Assembly: GCA_963665115.1 (NCBI GenBank)
Contig: OY762007.1
Span: forward strand, 4,864,001-4,928,000
DNA: 64,000 bases
Origin: an uncultured Rivularia sp.
GTDB lineage: Bacteria > Cyanobacteriota > Cyanobacteriia > Cyanobacteriales > Nostocaceae
Direction: 5' to 3'
In this document: positions 23,652 through 28,256 of the stretch, piece after piece
Numbering within the stretch: the first letter of the stretch is position 1
Layout: each line of letters starts with the position of its first letter
The notes under the pieces: generated by a model
What the model saw: only the letters and a program-made list of their open reading frames with translations
The model's database searches: none
What the model was told of the DNA's origin: nothing
Position numbers and translations under genes: made by a program

Positions 23652-24743
23652 ATGATTCACAAACAATTTTTTCACAAAAGCTTTATAGCTTCGGTTGCAG
23701 CAGCGACAGTTATTGTCTGTGGAAGCCAATTAGATCGCACTTTTGCTCAAACCGCACCTCGATCGACTACAGCATCTTCACAATCAAAACCTGCTTTTAC
23801 TTTGCAGGGACATATATGGACTATCCAAGCTTTAGATTTTAGTCCAGATGGGCAAACTTTAGTCAGCGGTAGTTACGACCACACCGTGAAAGTCTGGAAC
23901 CTGAATAATGGTAAACTCATTCGCACCCTTGATGGACATAAAGATGGGGTAAACGACGTGGCGATCGCTCCCGACGGAAAACTGTTTTTCACTGCTGGTG
24001 GAACGGCAGAACCCAATACCAGTAAGGTAATTAAGGTATGGGATATGAAAACAAAAAAATTACTTCGCACCTTCAAAGGACATACTTTAGGAGTGACTTC
24101 CCTAGCAATAACCCCAGATGGTAAAACTCTTGTTAGCGGTAGCTACGACAAAACAATTAGATTATGGGATGTAGATAAAGGTATAAGAAAACGTACTTTA
24201 ACCGGACATACCAGCCCCGTGCGTTCAATTGCAATTAGCCCAGACGGAAAAACTCTCGCTAGCGGTGGTGGCTCGCTTAAAAGTGATTCCGACAAAACAG
24301 TTAAATTATGGAACCTGCAAACAGGAGAATTAATTAGCAATATTAAGGGAAACGAAAACGTTATTAGCTTTATCGGCTTTACTCCCGACGGAAAATATCT
24401 TGTCAACTCCACAGATCCAAAAATCAACGTTTGGAATTTAAGTACAGGTAAACTAGTGAATCGTTTTGGAGTATCCGACATCGAAGGAGTGACTTCTGCA
24501 ACTTTAGGAAACGATAGTAAAAGTATCGTCACAACCACATTAGATGGTGCCGTAACAATGTGGGATTTAACCACCGGAAAAGCGATCAAAATTTTAGTTG
24601 AAGCCGCCAACAATCCTCAAAACTACGACCAACTTTATCCCACAAGTACCGCATTCAGCCCCGACGGTAAAACCATTGCCATTGGTGAGGGAGGTGGAGC
24701 TTACAATTCAAAATTTTCGATTAGCATTCGACGAATGCCTTAA
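23652..24743 (+). CDS. Secreted WD40 repeat protein
   Basis: Signal peptide plus about seven GH...SPDG...SGSYDxTxKxW repeats. Confidence 0.92.
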   Translation: MIHKQFFHKSFIASVAAATVIVCGSQLDRTFAQTAPRSTTASSQSKPAFTLQGHIWTIQALDFSPDGQTLVSGSYDHTVKVWNLNNGKLIRTLDGHKDGVNDVAIAPDGKLFFTAGGTAEPNTSKVIKVWDMKTKKLLRTFKGHTLGVTSLAITPDGKTLVSGSYDKTIRLWDVDKGIRKRTLTGHTSPVRSIAISPDGKTLASGGGSLKSDSDKTVKLWNLQTGELISNIKGNENVISFIGFTPDGKYLVNSTDPKINVWNLSTGKLVNRFGVSDIEGVTSATLGNDSKSIVTTTLDGAVTMWDLTTGKAIKILVEAANNPQNYDQLYPTSTAFSPDGKTIAIGEGGGAYNSKFSISIRRMP

Positions 24744-24910
24744 ACAGTTAACAGTGAGCAGTGAACAGTTAGGGGATGAGGGAGAGGGGGAGAGGGGGTA
24801 GAGGGGGTAGAGGGGGCTGGTAACTGTTCGCTAATTTCTGCCCATATATGAACAAGTCTACCGGAATGTCCATATAATGATTGGTAGTAATAAAGGTAGT
24901 TACTATAGAC

Positions 24911-25546
24911 ATGAACCAAGAAGACATGACAGTCAGTATTGGAGAAGCGGCTGATAAGTTGGGAGTTTCGGTGAAGACAGTTAGGAGATGGTCTGACGCT
25001 GGTAGACTTAGATGTGAACGAACTCCAAGTGGTCATCGTAGGTATTACACCTCAGACATTATCCGGATGACCACCAAGCCTGCCAAAGAAGAGCGTAAAA
25101 CGCTGGTGTATGGCAGAGTTTCGAGTCATGACCAAAAAGATGATTTAGTGAGACAAACAGAAGTACTTTCCCAGTTTTGTGTAGCCAAAGGCTGGGAGTA
25201 CGAGGTGATTATTGATTTGGGTAGTGGTTTGAATTATAAGAAGAAGGGACTTAAGAAACTCCTTAAACTCATACTGACTAACCAAGTAGAGCGAATTGTA
25301 CTCACGCACAAAGACCGATTGCTTAGATTTGGTTCTGAATTGGTTTTTGCGATGTGCGAAGAATTTCAAACAGAAGTCGTAATCATAAATAAAACCAAAG
25401 AAGACAGCACTTTTGAAGCCGAACTAGTTCGGGACATGATCGAACTCGTAACTGTGTTCTCAGCTAGGTTGTATGGTTCTCGCAGCAGGAAGAACCAGAA
25501 GATAGTAGACAATATGGTCACATCTGTACAAAAAGATTTAGAATAA
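24911..25546 (+). CDS. tnpA: IS607 family transposase (MerR-type HTH + serine recombinase)
   Basis: SIGEAADKLGVSVKTVRRW, RTPSGHRRY, YGRVSSHDQKDDL (catalytic Ser), DLGSGLN, HKDRLLRFG and FSARLYGSRS motifs. Confidence 0.95.
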   Translation: MNQEDMTVSIGEAADKLGVSVKTVRRWSDAGRLRCERTPSGHRRYYTSDIIRMTTKPAKEERKTLVYGRVSSHDQKDDLVRQTEVLSQFCVAKGWEYEVIIDLGSGLNYKKKGLKKLLKLILTNQVERIVLTHKDRLLRFGSELVFAMCEEFQTEVVIINKTKEDSTFEAELVRDMIELVTVFSARLYGSRSRKNQKIVDNMVTSVQKDLE

Positions 25547-25560
25547 ATCCACTTTATGTG

Positions 25561-25589
25561 TTGACAATTGATAGGCATGGGCATATTTT
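25561..25589 (+). promoter_or_regulatory. Sigma70-type promoter upstream of the tnpB-like gene
   Basis: TTGACA-N17-TATTTT in the 75-bp tnpA-tnpB gap. Confidence 0.6.
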
Positions 25590-25621
25590 AAATATAAGGT
25601 CGAACAAAACAGGAATTTCAA

Positions 25622-27142
25622 ATGGGTACAAAAACATTCACGACGGAGTTACCAAAACCTTTAGTTGGTTTCGCCGTCAGATATTCCAAAAAACAAAAAG
25701 AGAATCGTAATAAAGCTTTGGACTTAGTTAGTAGTGATATAGCCAAAACCAAACAAAACCAAGAGCTACAAAAACTTGGTTACAATAAAAGACAGGCGAA
25801 TTCCCTACTAATTGATATTGAAGGTAAAATCGGTTCTGCGTCCGAATGCCGTGAAGCTCATGTCGAGACTCTTGAAGGTAAAATAAAATCTGCTGTAGAA
25901 CAAATAAAAGAGTGGGAGGATAAGCTAGCCAAAATTGAATTGCCTGCTTGCCGAGTTCGCCGTAATCAGTTTAAATCTAGACAACACGAACTGAGATTTA
26001 AAATTCACCACAAACGCCGTTATGTAATAGCTCAACGAAGAAAGGTAGATAAGCTTAAAGAGCAGCCCGTTCACGTAAACCTTGGGACTGAATTTAACTT
26101 TTCGTTAGTTGGTAGCCAAGGTGAATCCAAAGGTAATCAGATATGCCAATATGACCATATAAAGAAGTCTTTAAAGATTCGCGTACCAGTAGAATTTGAA
26201 GCTGAGTTTGGTAAATATGTTTCTGCTAATCTAGAGTTCGCCTACGGACAAGATTGTATAGAAGCGGCTTTAATGCGCCGTTCGGAAAATAGTAAAACTT
26301 TAGAAGTAATTCCCGAAGGTAAAGGAGAAGCGCTTTCTTGGCGAATTTTCTTTAAGAACAATCGCTGGTACATTGCGGTTTCTGTCGAAGTTACAGAAGT
26401 TCCTTTATATTCCAAGCCAGTTAGATACGGCTGTATTGGTGTTGACTTGAATCCCGGTGTTATAGGTTGGTGCTATGCTGACCTTAATGGGAACCCTGTA
26501 GCCAAAGGTCAGATTAAGTTAAACTTACATTCTCGCCGTTCCGGACAAGTTAAAGCAGAACTCTCAGACGCTATTAAGAGTTTAATCCGACTAGCCGAAT
26601 TGTACTGTTGCCCAATAGTTATCGAAAAACTTTCTTTCTCAGCTAAAAAGAAGCGAATGCGAGAAGAAGGTCGTCGATACTCTAGAATGCTTAACTTCTT
26701 TGCTTACTCTGCCTTCGGCGAAGTTATACAATCTCAGGCGAAAAATAAAGGTATCCAAATAATTAAAGTTAATTCTGCTTACTCTTCATTAATCGGATTA
26801 ACCAAGTTTATGTCCTTGTACGGTATGAGTTCTGATACCGCAGCAGGACTAGTATTAGCTCGTAGAGCTATGAGACTTAGTGAGTCTGTACCTACCCATG
26901 TCGCTCTCCCTTCTGTGATGGATGGAACGAGACACGTATGGAGTTCATGGTACAGAATTAATAAGTCGCTCAAGTCGGTACGCCGTCATGAGTACTATAA
27001 CCAACAGGTGTTAACAGCGCACCTCAGCCATTACTCTACAAGCGACAAGCTTGTTGAGGTGGGTAAATCCGATGTGATTCCGGTTGAGGAACCCAGTGAA
27101 AGTCTGGGCTGTAATCCCGAACTAGCCGTTAAGGTCGGGTAG
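25622..27142 (+). CDS. tnpB: TnpB-related RuvC nuclease, zinc-finger-less type
   Basis: RuvC-I IGVDLN (D275), RuvC-II IVIEKL (E335), VNSAYSS..G..KF...G.SSDTAA (D405); directly downstream of IS607 tnpA. Confidence 0.85.
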   Translation: MGTKTFTTELPKPLVGFAVRYSKKQKENRNKALDLVSSDIAKTKQNQELQKLGYNKRQANSLLIDIEGKIGSASECREAHVETLEGKIKSAVEQIKEWEDKLAKIELPACRVRRNQFKSRQHELRFKIHHKRRYVIAQRRKVDKLKEQPVHVNLGTEFNFSLVGSQGESKGNQICQYDHIKKSLKIRVPVEFEAEFGKYVSANLEFAYGQDCIEAALMRRSENSKTLEVIPEGKGEALSWRIFFKNNRWYIAVSVEVTEVPLYSKPVRYGCIGVDLNPGVIGWCYADLNGNPVAKGQIKLNLHSRRSGQVKAELSDAIKSLIRLAELYCCPIVIEKLSFSAKKKRMREEGRRYSRMLNFFAYSAFGEVIQSQAKNKGIQIIKVNSAYSSLIGLTKFMSLYGMSSDTAAGLVLARRAMRLSESVPTHVALPSVMDGTRHVWSSWYRINKSLKSVRRHEYYNQQVLTAHLSHYSTSDKLVEVGKSDVIPVEEPSESLGCNPELAVKVG

Positions 27143-27216
27143 ATGTCCAGATATGTTCATATTTGGGTATATTTGTACACTTTTTATGTAACGGTAGAAA
27201 AAATCAAAATCCTAAC

Positions 27217-27303
27217 AATTACCAATTACCAATTACCAATTACCAATTACCAATTACCAATTACCAATTCCCAATTACCAATTACCAATTACCAATTCCC
27301 AAT
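27217..27303. repeat. STRR heptamer repeat (AATTACC)n
   Basis: About 12 copies with AATTCCC variants. Confidence 0.9.
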
Positions 27304-28256
27304 CACTTCTCATACTTTTCGTATGCAGCAACAATACGCTGTACTAAAGCATGACGCACCACATCTTTTTGAGAAAATTCACAAAAGGCTATGCCTTCTA
27401 CGTTTTTTAAAATTTGAAAGGCTGTTACTAATCCCGATTTTTGCTGTGATGGTAAATCGGATTGCGTCATGTCACCTGTTACTACCATGCGGGAATGAAA
27501 ACCCAAACGAGTTAAAAGCATTTTCATCTGGGCTGGTGTGGTGTTTTGGGCTTCATCCACAATTACAAAGGCATTATTTAAAGTTCTTCCTCGCATATAA
27601 GCTAGTGGCGCAACTTCGATTATGCCTCTTTCGATTAACGACGGTACTTTATCTGGCTCGATAAATTCGTTGATTGCATCGTAAAGCGGGCGCAAATAAG
27701 GGTTAACTTTTTGCTGCAAATCTCCAGGTAAAAAGCCGAGTTTTTCACCTGCTTCGACGGCAGGACGAGTTAAAATTAGTTTCTCGTATTTATTATCAAG
27801 CAATGCTTGAACAGCGACAACAACTGCCAAAAACGTTTTACCAGTTCCCGCAGGACCAATACAAAATGTCAAGTCACGCTTGCGTAGTGCTTCAATATAC
27901 TGTCGCTGGCGAAATGTTTTTGCACGAATTTGTTCGCCGCGACGAGTTTTAGCAAGTACATCTTTTTGTAATGTTTGCAGTTCATCTTCTCGATGAGTAT
28001 CGAGGGCTTGACGTGCTGTCAATATATCCGTGACAGTTAATGTATTGCCCTTCGTCCAAACATCTTCCAATGACTTTACCAATCGACTAACCAAATCGAT
28101 TTGTTTTTCCGTACCGCTAACGTATAATTCTTGTCCGCGCAGTACAACAGTAGCTCCAGTTTGTCGCGCTAAAAGCTTAAGGTTTTCTTCTTGGTTTCCC
28201 GCTAATGCCATAGCACTTGGGATGTCGGGCAGTTCTATTGTTATGGCATCTGCCAT
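27303..28256 (-). CDS. phoH: PhoH family protein
   Basis: GPAGTGKT, RPAVEAGEKLGFLPG, LAYMRGRTL and DEAQN motifs. Confidence 0.95.
   Translation of the reverse strand: MADAITIELPDIPSAMALAGNQEENLKLLARQTGATVVLRGQELYVSGTEKQIDLVSRLVKSLEDVWTKGNTLTVTDILTARQALDTHREDELQTLQKDVLAKTRRGEQIRAKTFRQRQYIEALRKRDLTFCIGPAGTGKTFLAVVVAVQALLDNKYEKLILTRPAVEAGEKLGFLPGDLQQKVNPYLRPLYDAINEFIEPDKVPSLIERGIIEVAPLAYMRGRTLNNAFVIVDEAQNTTPAQMKMLLTRLGFHSRMVVTGDMTQSDLPSQQKSGLVTAFQILKNVEGIAFCEFSQKDVVRHALVQRIVAAYEKYEK

Follow-up and report, generated by a model that had tools for sequence, protein, structure and literature searches.

Can a TnpB still cut DNA when it has the canonical D-E-D triad but neither the C4 zinc finger nor most of the bridge-helix hairpin, and what would such cutting do for its transposon? 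The question is raised by a tnpB gene in the window, i.e., the whole 64,000-nucleotide stretch of an uncultured Rivularia sp. genome analysed here, whose product a preliminary description had taken for an atypical RNA-guided nuclease and a possible relative of CRISPR-associated effectors.

A complete IS607 element and its copies

The gene lies on a complete IS607 element of 2,378 bp (24817-27194) with GG at both junctions (Table 1). The bounds are derived from locus L038 of a relative, an exact empty joint in which a G run is followed directly by the 20 nt that stand 3' of 27194 in the window. Position 27194, where conservation ends and beyond which flanks vary among copies, is the exact right end; the interval annotated earlier, 25622 to 27194, was therefore correct on the right side, but the element begins at 24817, well upstream of it. 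That the gene sits on an autonomous-looking transposon without an array holds, as an IS607 tnpA and both ends are present and no CRISPR array exists at the locus. TnpA scores 221 bits against NF033518 (cut-off 110) and contains MerR and Resolvase domains; its reading frame opens at TTG 24881, and ATG 24911 is the likelier start. On the left side, where the element end spans ~64 bp, GGG immediately precedes all 13 distinct ends found by blastn, with G (10) or A (3) at position -4 (one further match was dropped as an empty site, and the tnpB type is established for 10 of the 13). The same motif is invariant in the nine-locus left-end alignment A3, and the right ends terminate in CGG.

All 12 orthologous loci fetched from relatives lack the element, with the WD40 gene adjoining the phoH gene, and the variable short repeats that make up the spacer cause the empty sites other than L038 to differ. 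Two convergent genes flank the insertion site (24743-24816 and 27213-27302), a hypervariable spacer of short tandem repeats that measures 70-259 nt in relatives and whose G-rich repeat provides the target motif. The locus itself is an ordinary IS607 insertion.

Table 1. Positions, in window coordinates, of the IS607 element, its parts and its neighbours
Feature	Position	Strand	Basis
Host WD40-repeat gene, left neighbour outside the element	23652..24743	+	PF00400
G-rich target motif GGGG, a predicted TAM whose final GG is the likely recombination core	24813..24816	+	left-end comparison
IS607 left end	24817..24880	+	conservation begins at 24817 across 9 loci; empty site in L038
tnpA, IS607 serine recombinase with MerR-type HTH	24911..25546	+	NF033518, PF00376 and PF00239
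tnpB, 506 aa, zinc-finger-less, D275/E335/D405	25622..27142	+	protein conservation up to about residue 460
Long helical hairpin, residues 56-147, part of REC, predicted coiled coil	25787..26062	+	AlphaFold
RuvC-I Asp275 to RuvC-II Glu335, 60 aa apart; most of the bridge-helix hairpin absent	26444..26626	+	alignment
Helix in place of the C4 zinc finger (residues 386-404) and RuvC-III Asp405	26777..26836	+	alignment, AlphaFold
Predicted omegaRNA scaffold, whose last ~50 nt (3' side) also serve as right end of the transposon	27022..27194	+	covariation
Predicted guide, in the host sequence that follows the right end	27195..27214	+	flanks differ between copies; L038 joint
Host phoH-like gene, right neighbour outside the element	27303..28256	-	PF02562

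The window's genome (G000) holds a single copy of the element. A 97% identical element, with a frameshifted tnpB, occupies a different site in genome G269, and more distant members with Asp at RuvC-III (Asp-type) were fetched as four copies from G115 and three from G031, with identical RNA ends and different flanks. Among the 10 closest genome loci, three are frameshifted and one is partial. At E <= 1e-30, 68 of 301 family genomes contain a relative, and a profile search finds relatives in 15 of 301 genomes of the phylum; the named close homologues come from Rivularia and Calothrix, which makes a heterocystous cyanobacterium of this kind the probable host. Metagenomes yielded 368 confirmed loci; among the best 80, the triad reads D-E-D in 64, D-E-G in 10, D-E-A in three and D-E-H in two and is incomplete in one, and 24 of the 39 with at least 900 nt of upstream sequence have an IS607 tnpA there. 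No exact excision joint appears among the joints listed for four DNA runs, in which contigs drop rare variants. One of these runs, X4, contains a variant element on a contig with other flanks at a depth of 66, with the WD40 and phoH genes at ~300; this variant belongs to a subpopulation or to another strain.

Six further IS607 elements of the same genome (G000:C1 8133728-8135794, 3187129, 1510937, 294128, 3772622 and 4091873) carry canonical-type TnpB genes. At all six places checked, the element shares the window's left-end motif, each time after RGGG; one of them encodes a TnpA 78% identical to that of the window, and the last ~50 nt of the window element are common to canonical-TnpB IS607 elements of this genome. 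Since the same left ends stand before canonical-type tnpB genes, TnpB-RNA modules of distant clades use one transposon chassis, which suggests that TnpB-omegaRNA modules swap on this IS607 chassis, with possible mobilisation in trans. Such sharing agrees with the polyphyletic transposase associations of TnpBs reported in the available text of PMC10691335. Elsewhere, a His-type relative from Thermaerobacter (L067:785-3961) lies directly behind an ISLre2-family transposase, not an IS607 TnpA, an arrangement that may be a chance insertion.

The TnpB protein and the predicted RNA at the right end

The open reading frame 25622-27142 encodes 506 residues with D275, E335 and D405 at the positions first assigned to them. 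The protein contains no CxxC anywhere, as had been noted, and the segment quoted at the time in place of the zinc finger corresponds to residues 386-405. Among the best-listed 120 of 672 homologues, D275 and E335 are invariant, no CxxC stands between RuvC-II and RuvC-III, and residue 405 is D (99), A (19) or H (two). D405 aligns with the catalytic RuvC-III Asp of seven canonical zinc-finger TnpBs of the same genome. In an AlphaFold model built from the 120-sequence alignment (mean pLDDT 82.7, pTM 0.66), strands hold D275 and E335, and D405 opens a helix, a predicted arrangement in which the triad residues occupy the expected RuvC strands and helix of an RNase H fold. A helix (388-400) sits where the zinc finger would be, and two long helices (56-104 and 120-147) match the long N-terminal coiled-coil insertion read earlier from the sequence; this REC hairpin is present in His-type relatives too. 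D275 and E335 stand 60 aa apart; in a canonical TnpB encoded elsewhere in this genome, the spacing is 84 aa. The missing ~25 residues fall in a helical hairpin between RuvC-I and RuvC-II that we take to be the bridge-helix region, and the gap is common to the zinc-finger-less rows shown, including the His-type and Thermus rows.

In profile searches, the protein scores 33.3 bits against TIGR01766 (cut-off 32) and 48.3 bits against NF040570 (Typical/Derived TnpB), below the cut-off of 100, and the C4 zinc finger is also absent. Foldseek ranks Cas12f structures first (E 9e-9, 11% identity, TM 0.44) and ISFba1 TnpB at rank 30, and neither sequence nor Foldseek searches found a close solved structure. 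Compared with ISDra2 TnpB, as described in the accessible part of PMC10097598, the window TnpB has the same WED-REC-RuvC layout and D-E-D triad, and a disordered C-terminal tail that overlaps the omegaRNA, the C-terminal domain being dispensable in ISDra2. However, ISDra2 TnpB has a zinc finger (CCCC), spaces its triad more widely (D-E 87 and E-D 83 aa, versus 60 and 70 in the window TnpB) and is carried by a Y1 (IS605) rather than an IS607 element. With ~460 functional residues, the window TnpB, earlier proposed as a candidate compact editor, is larger than ISDra2 TnpB.

About 100 residues do follow RuvC-III, as originally described, but protein-level conservation covers only ~55 of them and ends near residue 460. 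Five comparisons with the window TnpB (half of one saturated) give a dN/dS of 0.07-0.14 over residues 1-460, i.e., purifying selection, and of 0.58-0.84 over residues 461-506; synonymous divergence is 0.11-0.34 in this tail versus 0.47-0.82 upstream. The high dN/dS and low synonymous divergence argue that the last 46 codons are constrained as nucleic acid, not as protein; residues 461-506 are the predicted omegaRNA read in frame. AlphaFold shows residues 464-506 as disordered, with pLDDT <50 from 464 on.

An omega/reRNA overlapping the last ~200 nt and the ORF tail had been postulated, and the last ~170 nt indeed covary as a structured RNA with a pseudoknot. The predicted structure comprises a stem (27022-27029/27082-27089), two hairpins (27092-27108 and 27116-27139) and a pseudoknot pairing 27126-27131 with 27189-27194. 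Alignment A2 runs from codon 456 to the right end in 22 distinct loci of ~41-100% protein identity and leaves out the more distant group L020-L034 and L060-L066 (except L022). In this alignment, 98% of cells in the hairpins and pseudoknot are paired and 13 of 18 pairs show double-sided change; the pseudoknot by itself is 100% paired, with double change in only two of its six pairs, and the upstream stem is 90% paired. None of 500 shuffles scored as high and slid controls reached at most 47%, counts that overstate significance because the structure was read from the same sequences, which are related. Codon statistics give independent support to the RNA constraint on the ORF tail, and folding of the single sequence yields z = -2.3. 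At E <= 1, model R1 matched 10 of the left-out distant loci and the partial L004 among 27 loci searched, and none of nine non-cyanobacterial loci; no Rfam family, RAGATH-18 included, matches the window RNA.

The frameshifted copies among close relatives, together with the ~50 terminal nucleotides that canonical-TnpB IS607 elements of this genome also carry, might suggest a decaying passenger with no current function, in which the RNA-like conservation reflects transposase binding sites only. We regard this as very improbable: the low dN/dS (0.07-0.14) speaks against it, the window tnpB is intact, and the compensatory pairs are located upstream of the common end motif, 55-170 nt in from the end.

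Absence of the usual right-end motif at the expected distance was seen in five of six D-E-G metagenome loci (L131, L134, L136, L138, L140 and L143) and in two of 54 other metagenome loci, the comparison being limited to loci with at least 300 nt downstream. The five motif-less loci retain tnpA; in the Gly variants, the omegaRNA may have changed or disappeared.

Placement among zinc-finger-less TnpBs

Of the five major TnpB clades, one is zinc-finger-less. The available text of Altae-Tran 2023 (PMC10691335) defines RIIIr-4 as a major clade without the C4 zinc finger and with His in place of the RuvC-III Asp. Nety 2023 (PMC10278001), in the part available, includes one RIIIr-4-labelled orthologue (no. 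39, 529 aa, His type), whose omegaRNA was processed and which was inactive in a TAM screen where 27 of 59 orthologues were active and 32 of 59 inactive. The window TnpB resembles RIIIr-4 in the missing zinc finger and the length of ~500-580 aa, yet it differs in having Asp at RuvC-III instead of the clade-defining His and in falling on a separate, mostly cyanobacterial branch (support 98). The accessible portion of the RIIIr-4 paper (PMC10691335) contains no description of the short RuvC-I/II spacing or of the RNA structure seen here.

Relatives were also found in plasmid (38) and phage (1) records, and all nine that were translated, out of 10 fetched, lack the zinc finger. Seven of these have His at RuvC-III (Thermaerobacter, two Pseudomonas, Rhizobium, Priestia, Clostridium and Mycolicibacterium) and two have Asp, namely the Thermus-associated L074 and L076 (Thermus plasmid, phage phiLo). 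These two Asp-type proteins branch apart from the window's group. The Mycolicibacterium protein, which by eye resembles orthologue 39 motif by motif, has 5,423 homologues, with His in 119 of the 120 listed; the Thermaerobacter protein has 983, and the 120 listed comprise 95 with His, one with Tyr, one mis-parsed and 23 unparsed. HHalign links the window profile to the Mycolicibacterium protein (actinobacterial group) with a probability of 99.4 and an E value of 2.9e-21.

In an IQ-TREE quick tree of 56 rows and 170 columns, with the RuvC-III column removed and all seven outgroups taken from one genome, the 49 zinc-finger-less rows form one clade against the seven canonical TnpBs (support 99). 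The window's group, with 20 sampled rows, forms a sub-branch (support 98) in a tree that does not fix the basal order, and a 92-row FastTree is similar. An AU test weakly rejected placing all His rows together (p = 0.041), with at least four Asp/His changes, a marginal result in view of long branches, a group named after seeing a tree and outgroups from a single genome; it leans towards a reversion from His to Asp. Since the protein is probably kin to RIIIr-4 and shares its build but has no His, we file it as an Asp-type variant rather than a plain member, and in the trees it belongs to a sub-branch of zinc-finger-less TnpBs that bears Asp and is mostly cyanobacterial. Its unusual trait for this clade is the RuvC-III Asp in place of His. 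The clade had been called poorly characterised, which is apt in that no close solved structure was found, but zinc-finger loss is a published hallmark of RIIIr-4, with thousands of members.

Proteins with a D-E-A triad form a sub-branch (19 of the 120 homologues listed; P0082, P0086, P0090, P0098 and P0118), a D-to-A change occurred independently in L025, and such members are candidate nuclease-dead RNA-guided binders. A second zinc-finger-less TnpB of the same genome (G000:C1:5965091-5966833, minus strand; 580 aa, 30% identical) has Gly at RuvC-III and lies, without an intact tnpA, among small genes that are presumably phage-like.

The suggestion of a type V-U relation and an evolutionary intermediate fared worse. 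A CRISPR-related V-U effector, or a TranC-like transposon-CRISPR intermediate, still on its transposon, would be in keeping with the top fold matches to Cas12f structures (E ~1e-8, 11% identity), the weak PADLOC matches to Cas12u3 (35 bits) and Cas12f (26 bits), and a size above that of canonical TnpB. However, the likeness is confined to overall fold (TM ~0.44), whereas identity is ~11%, profile scores fall far under their cut-offs (22.8 bits against 450 for NCBIfam Cas12f2), and the window has neither an array nor cas genes. A repeat scan covered 66 loci from genomes and plasmids, a count that includes duplicates and flanks that often span just 1.5 kb, and 80 metagenome loci, 47 of which extend 600 nt or more downstream. 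It found no CRISPR array; the one array-like hit, a degenerate repeat upstream of the gene in L064, is by inspection not CRISPR-like. In the genome of the window TnpB, a CRISPR-like array occurs no closer to the gene than ~125 kb. The window RNA is a single transposon-end scaffold; TranC, according to the available text of reviews (PMC13639567, PMC13565253, 10.64898/2026.03.27.714800), has a split tracrRNA/crRNA. With no array beside the relatives scanned, the intermediate reading is unsupported, and on the array scans and profile scores, the trees being of TnpB sequences only, we consider this explanation highly unlikely and, for the window locus, largely refuted.

Possible cutting or binding at the excision joint

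The gene encodes the TnpB of a complete IS607 element, of the Asp sub-branch, and we think that this protein probably binds the predicted right-end omegaRNA and cuts the post-excision site. The closest known cycle is that of CboIStron, in which, according to the available text (10.1101/2023.11.20.567912), TnpB cleaves the joint, TGGG plus target, that forms after precise TnpA excision at GG cores, and favours retention; a G at -3 tells joint from self and blocks self-cleavage. Like CboIStron and ISFba1 (accessible part of PMC11061315), the window element has a serine TnpA, a GG core, an xGGG left flank, and a right end in CGG that coincides with the 3' end of a predicted pseudoknotted omegaRNA. 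As the CboIStron sequence features are all present here, we infer the same cycle with an RGGG TAM. The window element differs from CboIStron in having no group I intron and a left end of only ~64 bp, and its zinc-finger-less TnpB is longer than ISFba1-type TnpB (330-433 aa), as far as the available text of these studies goes.

By analogy with CboIStron, TnpA would excise the element at the GG cores and join RGGG to the downstream flank, and the omegaRNA, with its guide derived from the 3' flank and a predicted 5'-RGGG TAM, would lead TnpB to this joint. TnpB would then cut the joint, with repair from another chromosome copy that still carries the element, and a break repaired from such a copy would result in retention. 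The filled site would escape cutting because there the guide-matching flank follows ACGG, not GGG. The most speculative step is that helix 388-400, the conserved segment 436-460 and the long REC hairpin may replace the zinc finger and the bridge-helix hairpin. At the level of sequence, the locus supplies a transposase gene, both ends, the empty site of a relative, copies elsewhere, a covarying RNA, an intact triad and purifying selection on residues 1-460.

Several points weigh against cutting. The RIIIr-4 orthologue no. 39 was inactive and some close copies are broken; loss of the zinc finger and the bridge-helix hairpin could impair strand loading; and the third triad residue is freely replaced in the wider branch, often with tnpA kept, so that cutting may be dispensable. 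It is accordingly possible, if rather unlikely in our judgement, that the same element and omegaRNA serve a TnpB that binds guide-matched DNA without double-strand breaks, with Asp405 tolerated at a relaxed site. Variants would be a nickase or a single-strand- or RNA-only nuclease, and the benefit would be joint occupation, RNA maturation or repression. Binding alone fits a His-type RIIIr-4 orthologue that processed its RNA yet had no dsDNA TAM activity, a family in which Asp, His, Ala and Gly all occur at RuvC-III, with at least four Asp/His changes on the tree, and a protein with no zinc finger and little of the bridge-helix hairpin. It fits less well with D275 and E335, invariant in the best-listed 120 of 672 homologues, or with the retention of Asp over most of a branch spanning ~35-100% identity, and one negative in-vitro screen is weak evidence where 32 of 59 orthologues were inactive.

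Returning to a cutting TnpB, a more far-reaching proposal can be made, which we hold to be doubtful: an active dsDNA nuclease without zinc finger or bridge-helix hairpin, whose Asp was regained from His, with RuvC-III acting as a cutter/binder switch and modules being swapped on an IS607 chassis with the same ends and RGGG target. Such an enzyme would have a different nuclease lobe, braced by the long REC coiled coil and by its own pseudoknotted RNA.

New here is the Asp-type variant of an already catalogued zinc-finger-less TnpB clade. Structure searches found no solved structure of this clade, and in the literature covered, with subscription papers mostly outside, no demonstrated cleavage by it was found and one member is reported inactive. 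The locus makes a complete test system, in which the triad is canonical and comparative evidence sets the ends and the predicted TAM, guide and scaffold. It could decide whether TnpB cuts without the zinc finger and the bridge-helix hairpin, and whether the His at RuvC-III marks a rearranged or a dead site; if no cutting occurs, a non-nucleolytic role would be indicated for a very large family. What matters chiefly is that the activity of a catalogued, almost untested TnpB clade becomes directly testable.
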